A stretch of DNA of 64,000 nt from positions 10,736 to 74,735 of the forward strand of contig DATCIS010000019.1 of NCBI GenBank assembly GCA_036507655.1, read 5' to 3'. Under the pieces are notes generated by a model that had not been told where the DNA came from, did not search any database, and saw only the letters and a list, made by a program, of their open reading frames with translations. This stretch comes from Candidatus Saccharimonadales bacterium (GTDB lineage: Bacteria; Patescibacteriota; Saccharimonadia; Saccharimonadales; UBA10212). Every line of letters begins with the position of its first letter. Position 1 is the stretch's first letter. Position numbers and translations under genes: made by a program. Below, one piece after another: positions 3,941 through 57,096 of the stretch.

Positions 3941-3995
3941 TTAGCTGTTAGCCGATAGCCGTTAGCTAATAGCTAGCAGCTAATCGCTAATAGAT
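3941..3995. repeat. TAGC-rich low-complexity tract containing GCCGTTAGCT and AGCCGATAGCCG motifs
   Basis: ttagctgttagccgatagccgttagctaatagctagcagctaatcgctaatag; the same 10- and 12-mers recur at 10900-10924 and inside gatA at 19421-19452. Confidence 0.5.
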
Positions 3996-4008: not shown

Positions 4009-4035
4009 TTAGCACTCGTCAAGTTAGAGTGCTAA
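4009..4035. promoter_or_regulatory. CIRCE element (HrcA operator), perfect match TTAGCACTC-N9-GAGTGCTAA
   Basis: ttagcactc gtcaagtta gagtgctaa read directly; 92 nt upstream of the clpC ATG (minus) and 49 nt upstream of the 4084 ORF start (plus). Confidence 0.8.
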
Positions 4036-4083: not shown

Positions 4084-4557
4084 GTGAATTCAGGCGAAGT
4101 TTCAAGAGGTATCCCCGAAGCTGAAAAAGCAGCGGCTTATGATTTCTGTGAGTATATTAGGCACGCAGCCGAGCTAACCGAACAGGCAAAACGGCTTGAA
4201 TTGATAGCCCAAAGAGCCGGGTCAAATGTCATACAGAAAAGTATGTTTGGTAATTTACCTTTTGTGCTCAGTATTGATATCCCGTCAAGTACGGAGGCTT
4301 TCACCGTCCGAGATGATGATGTTATTGAGGAGCAACCGGCGGGTTTCGTGGCTACTGAAATACGGAGCGTCAGCGAGCATGGTGTTGAGTTTTATAATCG
4401 CAACACTGAAATCTGGCTTAAATTAAAGGGTTTTGAATTCGAAGTCTTTCCGGTTTTCGACGAACAGCAACCTGACACAGGGGGAATGGCCGAAGATTTA
4501 CTGGATGCAGCCCGAGAATCTAGTAAAGGTCTTGACCACTCCGACGACCTTGCCTAA
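4084..4557 (+). CDS. hypothetical protein (acidic C-terminus); GTG start as called, true start uncertain
   Basis: 157-aa ORF with no recognisable motif; no clear Shine-Dalgarno; sits immediately downstream of the CIRCE element. Confidence 0.35.
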   Translation: MNSGEVSRGIPEAEKAAAYDFCEYIRHAAELTEQAKRLELIAQRAGSNVIQKSMFGNLPFVLSIDIPSSTEAFTVRDDDVIEEQPAGFVATEIRSVSEHGVEFYNRNTEIWLKLKGFEFEVFPVFDEQQPDTGGMAEDLLDAARESSKGLDHSDDLA

Positions 4558-5879: not shown

Positions 5880-7124
5880 CTAAACCGTAAATTGACCTTT
5901 TTGGTAGATGACTAACTCTTTACCGTTCTCTAAATTTGCGGTAACCGTCCGATCGGTAGTGGAAATCACGTCTGTGTGTGTTACTGAATCGTTAAAACCC
6001 AGCTTTTTTAAGACCGTCTTAGAGACATTAGACGAATGTTTTGAGTAGGTATCTTCGAATGATTTACCAACTGCTATGTGCATATTACCGTAGGGACCGC
6101 CCATGTTTTCGTCGTAGAGCTCTTCAGCCATCGGTTTTGTTATTCGAGATAAACGTTTGTCTGTTAGCGAGAACTCGCCCAGCTGCGATGAGCCTTTGTC
6201 AGTGTTGAGTAATTCCTTAAAGAACTTCTCGTTTCTGGTGGCCGAAACTTTAATAACTCTACCGGCCTTAAAATGAAGTTCTATGCCTTCTACCCTGGGG
6301 CCGTATTTAGCAACCGGATTATTAAATCGTGCCCAACCTTCGGTGCCGCGCCAATCAGGCGATGTGAAAACTTCGAAACTAGGGATATTCCGACCGCCAC
6401 CGCCCAGCCACTTACGATCCTTACCAATATTAATTCGTATGTCTGCGTCCCGACCGACTACGTGAATTTTGATGATTTTCAGGTCTGTTAATTTCTTAGC
6501 GACTCGATTGACCTCGGCGCTGACCTTCTTCCACTTAGCCACCGGATCGGCGTAATCTAAATAACAGGCCTTGATAATCTGGTCCCAATATTCTTTTGGG
6601 CTCAAGCCGGCTTCTTTAGCCATGGCGGGTGTTCCGTTAAGTGCTAACGTCCAGGTGTGTTTTCCGGCGTTTTCTTTTCGGTCTATCCATTCAATGAGCT
6701 TCTTTTTACTTTTTTGCTCTAAAAGCATCTTCTTAGGATCGACTCTGTCCAACTCACGTGTATTATGATCGCCTAGTATCGCTATTCGATGGTCTATATC
6801 AGCTACTAGCCCCTTATAAAAATTTTCCGGGAAGAAGGTTAGTTGCTCGTCAGTCGCATTTTTATACTTATATCGGTCCCAACCGCTCATATCGTCAACT
6901 ATAAGGCTGACGACATGCCCGCCACGATCGAAAACTGCCTTCCGTATCGCCCGGTAAAATGGTAGAGCCGACAGGGGCGTGGTCAAATAAACGAAATCGC
7001 CTTTTTTAATACCTTTGCCACCCCAAAGTGCAAAATTGACCAAAACTTTGGCATACTTCTCAAGAACCTCATCTGACGGCCGGTAACTCATCAGCCAATT
7101 ATACCCCAACTGATGAACTAGCAA
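5880..7124 (-). CDS. aminopeptidase, peptidase family M29 (AmpS/PepS-like); called start is TTG, likely true start is the in-frame ATG 11 codons downstream (MSYRPSDEVLEKYAKVLV)
   Basis: 414 aa with the typical M29 N-terminus (LEKYAKVLVNFAL, GKGIKKGDFVYL) and length; TAG stop. Confidence 0.75.
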   Translation of the reverse strand: MLVHQLGYNWLMSYRPSDEVLEKYAKVLVNFALWGGKGIKKGDFVYLTTPLSALPFYRAIRKAVFDRGGHVVSLIVDDMSGWDRYKYKNATDEQLTFFPENFYKGLVADIDHRIAILGDHNTRELDRVDPKKMLLEQKSKKKLIEWIDRKENAGKHTWTLALNGTPAMAKEAGLSPKEYWDQIIKACYLDYADPVAKWKKVSAEVNRVAKKLTDLKIIKIHVVGRDADIRINIGKDRKWLGGGGRNIPSFEVFTSPDWRGTEGWARFNNPVAKYGPRVEGIELHFKAGRVIKVSATRNEKFFKELLNTDKGSSQLGEFSLTDKRLSRITKPMAEELYDENMGGPYGNMHIAVGKSFEDTYSKHSSNVSKTVLKKLGFNDSVTHTDVISTTDRTVTANLENGKELVIYQKGQFTV

Positions 7125-7139
7125 ACATTTATCCCCCTG

Positions 7140-7177
7140 TACGTTATAACTTTGTTATAACAAAGTTATAACGTACT
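7140..7177. promoter_or_regulatory. 38-bp perfect palindrome carrying three GTTATAAC palindromic sites at 11-bp spacing
   Basis: gtacGTTATAACtttGTTATAACaaaGTTATAACgtac equals its own reverse complement; in the aminopeptidase upstream region / yraN downstream region. Confidence 0.5.
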
Positions 7178-7212
7178 TCAAGGAGAGTGGGCGCAGTGCA
7201 AGTAGAGCCTGC

Positions 7213-7554
7213 TTACTCGACTTCGGTGATTTGGATATTTTCGAAACCGGAGCCGGTGACTTCGGCGACGACAAGTCGGTAGTCTCCTTCCCAGTCGTTC
7301 TGAGCGGCCCAGAAATGGGCAGCGAACTGAAGCTGTCTAAGTTTTTTTGGCGTAATGTATTCAAATCCGGAGCCATGCGACTCAGAGAATCGGTACTTGA
7401 CTTCTATAAAATGGATAGTTTTAGCTTTTTGGACGATGAGGTCTATTTCGCACCATCGTGTCCGCCAGTTTTTAGCCAAAATTTTATAGCCGTTTGCCAC
7501 TAGATATTCGGCCACCGCGGCTTCCGCTTGGCGACCTGTTGTGGTTGTTTTCAT
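7213..7554 (-). CDS. yraN: YraN family (UPF0102) endonuclease-like protein
   Basis: 113 aa; GRQAEAAVAEYLVANGYKILAKNWRTRWCEIDLIV... characteristic UPF0102. Confidence 0.85.
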   Translation of the reverse strand: MKTTTTGRQAEAAVAEYLVANGYKILAKNWRTRWCEIDLIVQKAKTIHFIEVKYRFSESHGSGFEYITPKKLRQLQFAAHFWAAQNDWEGDYRLVVAEVTGSGFENIQITEVE

Positions 7555-8120
7555 CCTGCTTGATTGATCAACTTTGATACCGGAGAGTAAGACGCCCGAT
7601 GCACGAATTTTATTATGCCGAATGAGTTAATGGCTTTTAGGTGCTGGGCCGTACCATAGCCGACATGGTTTTCGAACTTATAAGACGGGTGTCTTTTGGC
7701 AAGCTCAATCATGAAATTATCCCTTGTGACCTTGGCATAAATACTAGCAGCTGAGACGATAGGCACTAAATTGTCAGCATCAACTAGACAACTGGTTTTT
7801 TTAAACTTCTTTGGCATGTAATTTACTTTGCCGTCCATAATAATTTCTTCGTCTTCTTGAGCCTCGATACCATTTAGGGCTCGCTTAATTCCAAGCTTCA
7901 AAGCCTTGGCTAATCCATATCTGTCAATCTCGACTGCTTTTATCCAGCCTTCACCAAACTCACATGTAATACTTAACTTGTTAAGTATTACATCTCTCTG
8001 TTTGCGACTTAATAGCTTTGAATCGCGCAGGCCGTTGGGCAGCTGCTTCTTTGCTCTGGCTGCCACCACTAAAATCGGCCCAGCTAAACAACCTCTACCT
8101 ACCTCGTCTACCCCAACCAT
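7551..8120 (-). CDS. rnhB: ribonuclease HII
   Basis: 189 aa; N-terminal VGVDEVGRGCLAGP catalytic motif; 4-bp overlap with yraN. Confidence 0.9.
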   Translation of the reverse strand: MVGVDEVGRGCLAGPILVVAARAKKQLPNGLRDSKLLSRKQRDVILNKLSITCEFGEGWIKAVEIDRYGLAKALKLGIKRALNGIEAQEDEEIIMDGKVNYMPKKFKKTSCLVDADNLVPIVSAASIYAKVTRDNFMIELAKRHPSYKFENHVGYGTAQHLKAINSFGIIKFVHRASYSPVSKLINQAG

Positions 8121-8220: not shown

Positions 8221-8691
8221 ATGCCAAGAGTTTCCCAAGAAGAAAGACGTTGGAGCTATTTCGTCGAAATCGAAGACGTCGAAGAGCCGGACATGAAAGA
8301 TTTCGAAAGAGGGAAAAGGCTAGCTGAAGGCCTGGCAAAAATTAGGAACAGTCTTCTTAACGTAGACGATGAACACCTGAACATTAGATGGAGCTCCTTA
8401 AATAGGGCTCGTATCATAGTACTGCCTTCGTTTCCTGTTGAACGCGAAATAGTTAGGTCAGACGGGTTTTATGAATACACCTCTCCTCACGAAATTTCGG
8501 AGTCGGATATTCCTCTTGTAATCAACCATTTCGAGATAGTAAAGCCAAGGCTTGGGGAATCTATTCCTGAGGTCATTCTTATAAATGGCAGCGGTCCAAC
8601 TTATCACACGCCTCAAGGAGGATTCCAAGTTCAGGAACTTTACCGCAGTCTCGACTTATTACCACACAAGGTAGCAATGCAGAAGAGATAG
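8221..8691 (+). CDS. hypothetical protein
   Basis: 156-aa ORF on the opposite strand from its neighbours, convergent with rplS; no recognisable motif. Confidence 0.35.
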   Translation: MPRVSQEERRWSYFVEIEDVEEPDMKDFERGKRLAEGLAKIRNSLLNVDDEHLNIRWSSLNRARIIVLPSFPVEREIVRSDGFYEYTSPHEISESDIPLVINHFEIVKPRLGESIPEVILINGSGPTYHTPQGGFQVQELYRSLDLLPHKVAMQKR

Positions 8692-10971: not shown

Positions 10972-11508
10972 ATGCTCCGCATAGTTTTAATAGCGCATAA
11001 CGTACGCTCGGCCCACAATGTCGGCTCAATTCTACGCAGCGCCGACGGTTTTGGTGTGGAGAGGGTTTACCTGACCGGCTTTACGCCGCATCCGCAAACA
11101 AGCGATGATAAAAGGATGCCGCATGTGGCTAAACGAGCGGCGGATCAGATAGCCAAAACCGCTTTGGGGGCCTAAAAAAAACTTAATTGGCAGCACCGTT
11201 CAGATGTCATAAAACTGCTAGCCAAACTGAAAAAAGAGGGATTTTCATTGGCGGCTCTGGAACAAACCGACAAGGCCGTAGCTTTGCCAAATTTCAGTCC
11301 CACTAACGACATGGCCTTGATTGTCGGTAGCGAAATCGCCGGCATTGAGCAAAGCATATTGAATGCCGCTGAAATTCATCTGTCGATACCGATGCTAGGA
11401 AAAAAAGAGTCCTTTAACGTGGCTGTGGCAGCCGCTGTAGCGCTATACTATTTACGATGGTATAATCGTAAGCTGAATGACCGCCAAAATAAAAATGCGC
11501 TCATATAA
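10972..11508 (+). pseudogene. SpoU/TrmH-family RNA 2'-O-methyltransferase interrupted by one in-frame TAA at 11173-11175
   Basis: ORFs 10972-11175 and 11248-11508 share a frame. Read-through gives one ~178-aa SpoU protein: motif 1 [15 protein letters not shown], motif 2 ALIVGSEIAGI, motif 3 IPMLGKKESFNVAVAAAVALYY. The stop sits in ...LGA*KKLNWQ before an A8 run. Confidence 0.6.
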
Positions 11509-16176: not shown

Positions 16177-16268
16177 TACCTAAATTATAAAGGAGAGGCT
16201 GGTTGGGTTATAGGGTTTTAGACGAAATAACTACAGTCCTACCCGCTAGACCACTATAACGCTCTTTT

Positions 16269-43853: not shown

Positions 43854-44585
43854 CTAATCTATAGCGATACGGGTAAGGAGGAACATAGAAAGAGCGCCCA
43901 TAATTGTTAGGCCAATTGTCAGGCGGGAAGAATTTTTGCTATGCGCCTGCGGTAAGATGTCGCTGGCGCCGATATATAGTAAAAAGCCGGCAAAAAACCC
44001 CAGATAAACCGCCAACACAGCTCCCGAGAGCGAAAAAAGTAAACTGCTTAGGCCGCCCATAATCGGCATCACCGCGGCTATCGCCAGCATTTTTTTAGCC
44101 CGGGATGGTTTGTTTTGGTGGTAAAGCATAACGTTGGTGGTGTTAAAACCATCGGCGAAGCGGTGGCCAATGACGGCAATTGCTACTGCTGCACCGACCG
44201 CAGTGCTAACTTGGAAGCCGATGCCTATACTCAGACCGTCTAGAAAGCTGTGTCCTGACAAAGCCACTGCCCCTGCAACACCGACAAAAGGATGCCGGTG
44301 CGGACCGTATTTTTCTTCGCTGCCATGGTGAATCAAGATAAGTTTTTCGATTACGTGAAATAGCAGAAAACCGCTGACCAAGGTTATCATTGGCCAAATA
44401 GGGTCAAGGTTTTCTGAGAAGCTAATCTCGAAAATCTCGGGTAGTAAGTTAAATGCCACCAACCCTAAAATCAAGCCGGCGGTAAAACCGAAGGCCAGGT
44501 GCAGCCTGCGTCGCCCGCGGATAGCAATAAACCCACCCAGCAATGCTGCCAAGGCAGCCGCCAGGGTTAGGAGGAACAACACCAT
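43854..44585 (-). CDS. ZIP-family metal (zinc/iron) permease
   Basis: 243 aa, 8 predicted TM, His-rich motifs HHGSEEKYGPHRH and SGHSFLDGLSIGIG. Confidence 0.85.
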   Translation of the reverse strand: MVLFLLTLAAALAALLGGFIAIRGRRRLHLAFGFTAGLILGLVAFNLLPEIFEISFSENLDPIWPMITLVSGFLLFHVIEKLILIHHGSEEKYGPHRHPFVGVAGAVALSGHSFLDGLSIGIGFQVSTAVGAAVAIAVIGHRFADGFNTTNVMLYHQNKPSRAKKMLAIAAVMPIMGGLSSLLFSLSGAVLAVYLGFFAGFLLYIGASDILPQAHSKNSSRLTIGLTIMGALSMFLLTRIAID

Positions 44586-44612: not shown

Positions 44613-44624
44613 AATTTGCAAATT
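44613..44624. promoter_or_regulatory. 12-bp perfect palindrome AATTTGCAAATT in the ZIP/Fur-family divergent promoter region (candidate Zur/Fur box)
   Basis: agAATTTGCAAATTtgtcgcaatttttt read directly; AT-rich flanks. Confidence 0.45.
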
Positions 44625-44653: not shown

Positions 44654-45076
44654 ATGCACTACAAAACGTTGCGGGCACTACTGAAGAAAAACGGTTCGAG
44701 CCTTACCAAGCCGCGTAAGGTTGTTTTTGATTTACTTTTCAACCAAAAACCACAGACTATGCAGGTCTTAATCGGTCGGGCTAAAGATAGGGTGGACCGA
44801 GCCAGCGTTTATAGAGCTATGGAGTTGTTTGAGAAGCTGGGAATTGTCAACCGCTTAAATATCGGCTGGAAATACAAGTTCGAGTTATCTGATGTCTTCC
44901 AAGAACACCACCATCATTTCCACTGTACCAACTGCGGTACAACGTTCAGTCTTGAGCCAAACTCGATGCTTGAGACAATGATAGATACAGTAGCTGCCAA
45001 ATCCGGTCACTCGCCACGAGGCCACCAGCTAGAGGTTTACGGATTATGCGCCGATTGCCAACGTCGGACCGCCTAA
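44654..45076 (+). CDS. zur: Fur-family transcriptional regulator (Zur-like, divergent from ZIP transporter)
   Basis: 140 aa; winged helix then HHHHFHCTNCG ... LCADCQ metal-binding motifs. Confidence 0.85.
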   Translation: MHYKTLRALLKKNGSSLTKPRKVVFDLLFNQKPQTMQVLIGRAKDRVDRASVYRAMELFEKLGIVNRLNIGWKYKFELSDVFQEHHHHFHCTNCGTTFSLEPNSMLETMIDTVAAKSGHSPRGHQLEVYGLCADCQRRTA

Positions 45077-56517: not shown

Positions 56518-57096
56518 TTAACCCGCCGGCCGCCCCTTTATCCAGTACCCTCTGGCTGCATTACCTCTCGGTGCAGGCGGTAAGCCAGATTGACGAATCA
56601 TCTCAGACCACGATCCGAAGACCTTCTGAACGCAGCGTAGTGGTGGAGCTTCGAACTCGTAGTAGCGATTGACCCGTTCCAGGTGGCCCTGCCTTACTGC
56701 TTGGGCTGGATGCCAATCTGCAACCGCGGGCGTGTAACCAAAATGCTTATGCCACTCACGGGCTTTTTGTAGAATTGACTCGCTAGTCCATTTCTTGCCG
56801 CCCGCAGGACGGTAGATTCCTGACATCACTCGCAAATCGGCTACTCTTCTCACCCCGAGACCCAATTTTGCGGCGATTTCCTCATCGCTCTTACCGGCTT
56901 CGGCAAGTACTCGAACTTGCTCTTGCCTAACCTTAGTCCGACTGTTTTCTCGATTGAGGTTTCCGACCACCTGTCGAATTCGCTCAGCAGTTACACCTTC
57001 GCGAGCTCCGATTTCCTTTAGGGTCTTACCTTCCTCAAGAAGTTCTTTGCGCATGGTCTCGATTTTCTCGGGAGACCATCGCCGGTTCGGTGGCAT
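56518..57096 (-). CDS. DNA-binding protein with two sigma-70 region-4-like HTH motifs and a C-terminal HEARO-like (homing-endonuclease-associated repeat) domain
   Basis: LKEIGAREGVTAERIRQV and EEIAAKLGLGVRRVADLRV HTH; C-terminal WTSESILQKAREWHKHFGYTP...FGSWSEMIRQSGL resembles the HEARO consensus FGSW..A...AGL; AAAGGAGG SD. Confidence 0.45.
   Translation of the reverse strand: MPPNRRWSPEKIETMRKELLEEGKTLKEIGAREGVTAERIRQVVGNLNRENSRTKVRQEQVRVLAEAGKSDEEIAAKLGLGVRRVADLRVMSGIYRPAGGKKWTSESILQKAREWHKHFGYTPAVADWHPAQAVRQGHLERVNRYYEFEAPPLRCVQKVFGSWSEMIRQSGLPPAPRGNAARGYWIKGRPAG

Follow-up and report, generated by a model that had tools for sequence, protein, structure and literature searches.

A dispersed 38-bp palindrome with boxes matching the AbrB/MazE-Doc operator consensus upstream of the M29 aminopeptidase gene of a Saccharimonadales bacterium

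A 64-kb stretch of contig DATCIS010000019.1 from a Candidatus Saccharimonadales bacterium (hereafter, the window) contains a perfect 38-bp palindrome, gtacGTTATAACtttGTTATAACaaaGTTATAACgtac, located between yraN and the gene of an M29 aminopeptidase. Judging by the distribution of its copies, this palindrome is one orphan copy of a short intergenic element dispersed in one clade of Saccharimonadales. Its three 8-bp boxes have exactly the consensus sequence of operators that precede genes of AbrB/MazE-type antitoxins with Doc toxins. We give roughly an even chance to the explanation that the element is an orphan, dispersed and selected operator array of toxin–antitoxin (TA) type, putatively bound by dimers of an AbrB-type antitoxin.

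The palindrome and its dispersed copies

The original prediction described a perfect 38-bp palindrome comprising three 8-bp palindromic boxes, 11 bp apart from centre to centre. Both features are confirmed by the sequence, while the coordinates 7140–7177 had to be shifted one base lower (Table 1). Exact copies of the box, GTTATAAC, occur three times in the window, always inside the palindrome (0.62 expected), and a count of three anywhere in the window was matched by 2 of 100 shuffles. Boxes with one mismatch are scattered at chance level (23 versus 20.4 expected). A second copy of the 19-nt half-element was not found in the window with up to three mismatches allowed, and a further 9.6 kb (L334) of the 103-kb ENA metagenome contig to which the window belongs do not contain a second copy of the element; together, these two segments make up the readable sequence of the contig, 73.6 kb in total. 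The identical 38-mer, flanked by unique sequences on both sides, is present in independent ENA, NCBI, JGI and Logan assemblies, which rules out an assembly artefact.

The concern that the box may simply be a restriction–modification target was not borne out by k-mer statistics: counts of the box show neither enrichment nor avoidance, TTATAA was counted 25 times (24.4 expected), and GTTATA and TATAAC are at expectation. A weaker inverted pair proposed upstream of dnaE (16198–16260) shares only GTTATAG with the element and forms no inverted repeat, so we consider it a chance resemblance. A search of the window for canonical parS was negative, and nothing connects the element with partition. No tRNA or known RNA family was detected at or near the element copies. 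A literature search for the motif returned primers only, and one on palindromic repeats in Saccharibacteria found nothing.

Further copies were sought in one genome per species, as three boxes within short gaps, and in JGI metagenomes with the pattern ACGTTATAAC-N3-GTTATAAC-N3-GTTATAACGT. The resulting copy numbers are lower bounds. The identical 38-mer was found in a Saccharimonadales metagenome-assembled genome (MAG; L014) between divergent rpmB and M50-protease genes. The JGI scan yielded at least 13 loci, at least 11 of which (10 distinct sites) share the core and its TTT/AAA spacers, with flanks that are all different, and one further copy of the core is located on a Logan contig. This distribution speaks against an operator serving one gene, as the same core stands at no fewer than 12 other intergenic sites among unrelated neighbours. 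These neighbours encode an AbrB-type antitoxin with a Doc toxin, Pcm, a nuclease, a tyrosine recombinase and small membrane proteins. All copies are intergenic, and the flanking genes may be co-directional, divergent (L014, L193) or convergent (L195).

All 14 copies seen agree in the inner 30 bp, and 12 of them possess GTAC ends. Since L331 lacks these ends, the invariant core consists of 30 bp, i.e., three boxes and the TTT/AAA spacers. The outward flanks resemble each other for about 12 nt (ACTACTGGGAGA-like, with the purine-rich consensus GTAC-tACTGGGAGA); beyond this distance no flank homology that would point to a longer mobile unit was found. The shared flanks suggest that the elements are copies of a common ancestor of approximately 58 bp and not sites that arose separately in situ. 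Another Saccharibacterium (L008) has a diverged relative of the element, and no degenerate copies were found in 164 kb of Saccharimonadales DNA.

Filled and empty sites could be compared at two of these loci. The rpmB–M50 spacer is filled in L014 and empty in relatives whose M50 proteins are 84% and 80% identical; the empty spacers are 60 nt long and contain the same two −10 boxes without the element. The locus of a PQ-loop protein contains the element in L195, L202 and L331 and is empty, with a spacer of 0–4 nt, in L325–330, L332 and L333; the empty L333 and the filled L202 have the same cupredoxin neighbour. A comparison of L195 with L202 gives 86% nucleotide identity for the adjacent gene and only 58%, with indels, for the spacer, while the core matches in 37 of 38 positions. 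These comparisons indicate that the core is mobile on an evolutionary scale and that it is under strong purifying selection, or homogenisation.

In L202 (positions 394–612), the element lies beside a 53-aa membrane open reading frame (ORF) with its own leaderless promoter, TATATAAT-N7-ATG. Both are missing from the empty site in L333 and may have arrived together. The rpmB–M50 spacer of a third relative (L208, 1390–1440) contains a different inverted repeat, AATTCAGTTGACT-N23-AGTCAACTGAATT, so the same spacer has been invaded independently.

Such presence/absence polymorphism, observed at three loci including the M29 locus described below, raises the question of whether the palindrome serves recombination or mobility, as a target or end recognized by a site-specific recombinase or transposase, as a minimal miniature inverted-repeat transposable element (MITE), or as an att-like site at the border of inserted DNA. 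Synteny between L195, L202 and L331 breaks exactly at the element, the L202 copy came with the 53-aa leaderless ORF, a tyrosine recombinase gene ends 22 nt from the copy in L203, and the GTAC ends could represent a duplicated palindromic target. We nevertheless regard this possibility as very unlikely. Each contig has one copy, with no cassette enclosed between two; the sequence is unlike dif or attC cores in our own comparison; and a fully symmetric site confers no directionality. No transposase was found among the called genes and Pfam matches of the 21 kb around the element or among ten window ORFs scanned. In terms of a MITE, the whole element is an inverted repeat, and its GTAC ends, a possible duplication, are missing in L331; no target-site duplication could be defined at the divergence available.

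Box identity with AbrB/MazE-Doc operators

Three loci retrieved by DNA pattern carry arrays directly upstream of small AbrB/MazE-type genes (L192, L003 and L088), and their antitoxins share the N-terminal hairpin motif K-[IV]-G-[NS]-S-x-G-V. The first, L192, is a contig that combines the 38-bp element with genes of an antitoxin (PF04014) and a Doc toxin (PF02661). Its perfect element copy is located at −124 to −95, and a proximal operator, ATTATAAT-ttt-GTTATAAT, at −44 to −26, with the same 11-bp spacing as in the dispersed element. In L003 (Rhodospirillales), three boxes spaced by 12 bp stand 17 nt before the antitoxin gene, and the Doc toxin has the motif HPFxDGNKR; L088, from another Saccharibacterium, contains three arrays with 10-bp spacing.

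Operators were also collected starting from the protein. A tblastn search of plasmids with the L003 antitoxin returned 126 records, most of which carry the annotation of an AbrB/MazE/SpoVT protein together with a death-on-curing toxin. All eight AbrB-Doc operons fetched from these plasmids, whose hosts belong to five phyla (Salipiger, Chlorobium, Cyanobacterium, Crocosphaera, Leptospira, Methylobacterium, Nitrosomonas and Acetobacter), have two or three GTTAnnAC-type boxes, mostly 12 bp apart and ending 10–30 nt before the ATG. Six of the eight passed a strict box-pair test, in which the chance expectation is 0.019 pairs per 1-kb locus, and these loci have no box pairs elsewhere. Viral loci were chosen by protein similarity using an alignment of these antitoxins. 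An upstream box with at most one mismatch was present in 10 of 16 distinct loci, and all five full-length viral relatives have a pair spaced by 12 bp, if two or three mismatches are allowed in the second box of two of them. The consensus of the plasmid, L003, L192 and viral operator boxes is GTTATAAC, exactly the box of the window.

A 2026 study of the Phd-Doc system of E. faecalis, which also covers the two-site model of P1 phd-doc, found that the AbrB-like Phd binds TGTATATACA (operator Oln1). Its dimer presents two β-hairpins about 12–14 Å apart and covers approximately 8 bp, and this homologue with a solved structure places one dimer on each 8-bp palindrome of the GT(AT)4AC type (PMC13034048). 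The antitoxins of L192 and L003 match the PDB chains of E. faecalis Phd weakly, through the same K-x-G-N-S hairpin. The box in the window is likewise an 8-bp GT-(A/T)4-AC palindrome of a size suited for one β-hairpin dimer; unlike the window array, E. faecalis Phd is reported to use a single site.

The window array thus resembles the AbrB/MazE-Doc operators of five phyla in repeating the exact GTTATAAC consensus in tandem within the 10–12 bp range of spacing. It differs from them in several respects. Its neighbours are yraN and the M29 gene instead of a TA operon of its own, it belongs to a multi-copy family, and it comprises three perfect boxes instead of two degenerate ones. Several points weigh against the operator explanation. 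The array has an 11-bp step and is located upstream of the −35 region, whereas canonical TA operators mostly have a 12-bp step and overlap the promoter. Homologues of AbrB/MazE or Doc were not detected by tblastn in the 73.6 kb of the contig. Only one of 13 loci with the exact element adjoins a TA operon, and that operon has a proximal operator of its own. Conservation as strong as that of the boxes extends to the TTT/AAA spacers and usually to the GTAC ends; recognition of boxes only does not predict such conservation, which would fit a hairpin or cruciform, or concerted copying. Neither a transposase nor a target-site duplication that would explain the dispersal was identified. Finally, triple arrays of other AT-rich 8-bp palindromes used as controls in viral contigs (CTTATAAG, GTAATTAC and GAATATTC) were found at 48, 28 and 38 loci compared to 69 for GTTATAAC, and arrays of CTTATAAG also favour the 11-bp spacing.

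Tandem repeats in coding DNA, with periods of 9, 15, 18 or 21, account for many matches of the genome scan. The frequency of the control arrays means that GTTATAAC arrays scattered across phyla are not special in themselves, and it weakens the idea of a universal GTTATAAC-binding protein across phyla. The case for TA-type boxes therefore rests on the 38-mer family and on the consensus ascertained through proteins.

Adjacent palindromes bound by antitoxin dimers are well known from P1 phd-doc and F ccdAB, where bridging by the toxin results in conditional cooperativity and cooperative repression. By analogy, the phased short palindromes of the window may each accept one antitoxin dimer, although P1 Phd has a YefM-type fold and other box sequences, unlike the candidate binder here. 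Antitoxins can also act outside their own operons, as described for MqsA at rpoS and csgD, for HipB and for DinJ, using operator-like palindromes at unrelated genes. Those additional sites are few, degenerate and evolved in place, whereas here at least 12 identical 38-bp copies look inserted. Arrays of the MetJ, Arc and CopG type are similar in that several dimers use β-strands to recognize tandem short boxes on one face of DNA; they differ in their ribbon-helix-helix proteins, none of which is implicated here, and in boxes and spacing (8 bp in MetJ). Taken together, our preferred reading, held at about even odds, is that a TA-type operator array became a dispersed, selected, orphan intergenic element in a lineage of the candidate phyla radiation (CPR).

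Arrays of the same box were also observed in other settings. Several phage contigs (Table 1) contain GTTATAAC(a[cg]t)GTTATAAC arrays, often as two clusters about 130 bp apart, just 3′ of a gene encoding a 588-aa primase-helicase. They probably serve as origin iterons or early operators, and in related phages CTTATAAGagtCTTATAAG takes the place of GTTATAAC. Bacteroidales/Rikenellaceae genomes possess several copies each of a dispersed 41–42 bp four-box palindrome, GTTATAACaatGTTATAAC-N3/4-GTTATAACattGTTATAAC, which varies only in its central 3–4 nt and is always intergenic, often a few nucleotides from a stop codon, with unrelated neighbours. A third dispersed four-box family (gagtgGTTATAACggatGTTATAACggattcGTTATAACatccGTTATAACcactc) with 12-14-12 spacing was seen at no fewer than four loci of one deltaproteobacterial MAG.

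The M29 locus and possible roles of the element

On the minus strand of the window, rnhB, yraN and the M29 aminopeptidase gene are followed by nusA. The palindrome begins 36 nt after the yraN stop (7213); the called TTG start (7124) follows it at a distance of 14 nt, and ATG 7091 at 47 nt. The original prediction gave 15 and about 48 nt for the two starts; the order of features stands. Its preference for the ATG start is supported by homologues: nearly all M29 proteins among the matches listed are 403 aa long, and the N-terminus MSY(K/Q)P of three fetched relatives corresponds to MSYRP in the window protein. The shared length and N-terminus place the M29 start at ATG 7091 rather than TTG 7124. 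The miscalled TTG falls within a −35-like hexamer, TTGCTA (7124–7119), which has a 15-nt spacer; TGTTTG with an 18-nt spacer is an alternative.

Because TATAAT–ATG 7091 recurs in relatives, it is the predicted ancestral promoter of the M29 gene and a leaderless one. A TAnnnT hexamer ends 4–9 nt before the start codon in 20 of 63 predicted starts, compared to 7.4% of random positions. Starts of this type are typically TAnAAT-N6-ATG without a Shine-Dalgarno sequence, and a Shine-Dalgarno-like motif is present in 22 of the 63 genes. This excess suggests that leaderless mRNAs, including that of M29, seem to be common in this Saccharimonadales genome. The annotation of the M29 start and promoter is corrected accordingly, to a leaderless start at ATG 7091.

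The closest M29 homologues among the matches listed are 67% identical and belong to Saccharibacteria/Saccharimonadales. The gene order rplS-rnhB-yraN-M29-nusA(-clpB) is kept in three relatives from two lineages (L204; L205 and L206), where rnhB-yraN leads straight into the M29 promoter. Their yraN–M29 spacer measures 15–21 nt and carries ggTATAAT-N6/7-ATG without a palindrome, versus 121 nt in the window. We conclude that approximately 100 nt including the palindrome were inserted in the lineage of the window; with the next-best homologue at only 67% amino-acid identity, the boundaries of the insertion cannot be drawn to the base. The first ~12 nt of the spacer between the palindrome and the yraN stop fit the purine-rich outward flank consensus of the family.

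A perfect CIRCE operator, TTAGCACTC-N9-GAGTGCTAA, is located at 4009–4035, about 90 nt 5′ of clpB (start 3917, minus strand), and is also found upstream of clpB in L205 (position 5073). An ancestral operator thus survives the same divergence, while the palindrome is simply absent in the relatives. It also appears from the CIRCE sequences that clpB is HrcA-controlled in these Saccharimonadales. These comparisons bear directly on the original prediction, which saw in the palindrome the architecture of a multi-site operator for a dimeric repressor. The multi-box architecture, now traced to the AbrB/MazE-Doc box consensus, and the position directly upstream of the M29 promoter agree with it. An operator dedicated to M29 and serving a local repressor is nevertheless most improbable and largely refuted: the array, which the prediction expected at orthologous loci, is missing from the spacers of all three relatives, the same 38-mer adjoins unrelated genes elsewhere, the array precedes the −35 region instead of overlapping the promoter, and no repressor gene was found near the palindrome.

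If the element is instead a TA-type operator array, we infer both a binder in this organism and an effect on M29. The inserted element, with an invariant core of 30–38 bp and about 10 bp of decaying flanks, stands between yraN and the leaderless M29 promoter. Three dimers of a "KIGNS"-motif antitoxin or a paralogous AbrB-type regulator could then bind through their β-hairpin pairs, one per 8-bp box, and the 11-bp spacing would place them nearly on one face of the helix. Bridging by the toxin could make this binding cooperative, as expected from established TA biology. Such a complex would occupy approximately −48 to −85, the span of the palindrome 5′ of the M29 promoter, just upstream of the −35 region and downstream of yraN. 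It could modulate M29 initiation, block read-through from rnhB-yraN, or both.

The main rival, which we consider unlikely, is a hairpin resembling repetitive extragenic palindromic (REP) sequences, acting in RNA as a 3′-end stabiliser, attenuator/terminator or insulator, or in DNA as a cruciform, with the box periodicity being incidental or a relic. The hairpin is indeed very stable (RNA z = −3.4 in context; DNA −16.4 kcal/mol, z = −8), and most loci place the element just 3′ of a gene end. T-runs follow it where the genes of the PQ-loop locus converge (ccccgttttt in L195, cccttttttt in L331), and in another lineage palindromy is kept by paired changes of the spacers (ATT/AAT in L191/L198 versus TTT/AAA). 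The similar Bacteroidales four-box elements vary in sequence and length at their central 3–4 nt, as a loop would, and are found right after stop codons. Canonical intrinsic terminators in the window are not above chance (28 versus 23.5; 30 versus 24.1). However, the copies in L014 and L193 lie between divergent genes, upstream of both promoters, where transcription is not expected, and most copies lack a U-tract. The window copy is one of them: its stem is A+U-rich, its tail is AGGGGGAUAAA, and the scan for intrinsic terminators made no call. The outer arms fail to keep pairing, and a hairpin leaves unexplained why each arm contains 11-bp-phased boxes identical to a known operator consensus.

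REP/REPIN, BIME, Correia and ERIC sequences share with the element their short, hairpin-capable, intergenic palindromes, multi-copy and variably present among relatives, often after genes. REP/REPIN sequences number tens to hundreds per genome and include degenerate copies and inverted pairs, whereas the 73.6 kb of the contig have one copy; GTAG is absent (the ends are GTAC), and no RAYT gene was seen among the genes scanned. The palindrome also differs from them in being perfect, in lacking degenerate copies and in its 11-bp box periodicity that matches a protein operator.

The element could alternatively be a regulon site of another clade-wide transcription factor, with M29 as one of at least 12 targets and the TA match a coincidence. 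Its core is strongly conserved, at least eight loci have a gene start 47–110 nt from the core and a −35-like hexamer 11–18 nt past the core edge, and several neighbours function in protein turnover or repair (M29, M50, Pcm). We find this distinctly unlikely, as sites evolved independently should not share flanks or 38-bp identity including the spacers, and the filled and empty sites indicate insertion rather than in-situ evolution. Two regulators in the window offer poor candidates: the divergent region of a Fur-family gene has AATTTGCAAATT, not GTTATAAC, and a 192-aa protein with tandem helix-turn-helix (HTH) motifs is a poor match for boxes with two-fold symmetry.

A Zur/Fur box, suggested by the zinc link of M29, M50 and L28, was rejected on account of the different palindrome at the Fur gene and the geometry (8-3-8 versus 7-1-7). 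That Fur-family gene (44654–45076) is divergent from a ZIP zinc-transporter gene (43854–44585), and the perfect AATTTGCAAATT palindrome at 44613–44624, in their shared promoter region, is likely a Zur-type box. In the 192-aa protein (56518–57096, minus strand), a homing-endonuclease-associated repeat accompanies two HTH motifs that resemble sigma-70 region 4. The similarity of this protein to the CRISPR repeat-binding protein Cbp1 is weak (E 7e-5, far below cut-off), and its gene is preceded by a 345-nt intergenic region. Two plus-strand ORFs, 8221–8691 and 4084–4557 (156 and 157 aa), gave no Pfam or NCBIfam match. With no family or only weak HTH matches, nothing ties any of these three products to the element, and they were dismissed as binders.

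Both ORFs lie on the strand opposite to their neighbours, the first in the rplS–rnhB gap and the second in the nusA–clpB gap, where L205 and L206 have just 40–56 nt. Together with the palindrome, they represent three lineage-specific insertions in a conserved block. Between CIRCE and the clpB promoter, a 50-nt imperfect palindrome (3941–3990) rich in TTAGC/GCTAA, TTAGCTGTTAGCCGATAGCCGTTAGCTAATAGCTAGCAGCTAATCGCTAA, was observed. A perfect 14-2-14 inverted repeat, ATGTAATACTTAAC gt GTTAAGTATTACAT, is located at 7964–7993 within the rnhB coding region, which is unusual for coding DNA. A stop or frameshift breaks a gene of a SpoU-type methyltransferase (10972–11508, plus strand) into two ORFs (67 and 86 aa), and the split reflects either a pseudogene or an assembly error.

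Table 1. Features of the M29 locus in the window and loci with related box arrays
Feature	Position	Strand	Remarks
Palindrome core	7139-7176	.	perfect, 38 bp
GTTATAAC box 1	7143-7150	.	promoter-proximal; centre ~-55.5 relative to ATG/transcription start 7091
GTTATAAC box 2	7154-7161	.	palindrome centre; ~-66.5
GTTATAAC box 3	7165-7172	.	~-77.5
rnhB	7551-8120	-	
yraN (UPF0102)	7213-7554	-	upstream gene; directly abuts M29 promoter in relatives
Spacer, yraN stop to palindrome	7177-7212	-	part of ~100-nt lineage-specific insertion
Spacer, palindrome to -10 box	7104-7138	-	within insertion; purine-rich flank AGGGGGA
TATAAT -10 box	7098-7103	-	6 nt 5′ of ATG 7091, context ggggTATAAT; conserved in relatives
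M29 aminopeptidase, start corrected	5880-7091	-	403 aa
Canonical terminator after M29 gene	5838-5821		
Phage array contigs	L132, L134, L147, L151, L177, L178, L186		and related viral contigs
Bacteroidales/Rikenellaceae palindrome loci I	L007, L010, L020, L023, L025, L027, L028, L032, L037, L043, L045		
Bacteroidales/Rikenellaceae palindrome loci II	L051, L064, L075, L087, L091, L098, L102, L108, L109, L120		
Deltaproteobacterial four-box palindrome loci	L019, L081, L099, L111		

Significance of the element

We speculate further, and only tentatively, that an AbrB-type antitoxin with Doc as co-repressor was recruited as a stress-responsive global regulator in CPR genomes poor in transcription factors, the 38-bp palindrome serving as a super-operator before at least 12 promoters. 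If so, its targets would comprise M29, M50 and rpmB, the Pcm repair methyltransferase, a nuclease and small membrane proteins, and proteolysis of the antitoxin would switch a set of protein-turnover and repair genes. The dispersed GTTATAAC-box palindromes of Bacteroidales and the deltaproteobacterium would then be parallel cases.

Regardless of this regulator, tandem GTTATAAC boxes at 10–12 bp are a phylum-spanning signature of AbrB-type antitoxin/Doc modules and can aid their annotation. Should the operator explanation hold, the operator of a TA repressor would have been multiplied genome-wide and kept by selection, which amounts to wiring by ready-made operator modules in bacteria with very few transcription factors. 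Should it fail, the palindrome would still represent a new and unusually well conserved dispersed palindrome family in Saccharibacteria.

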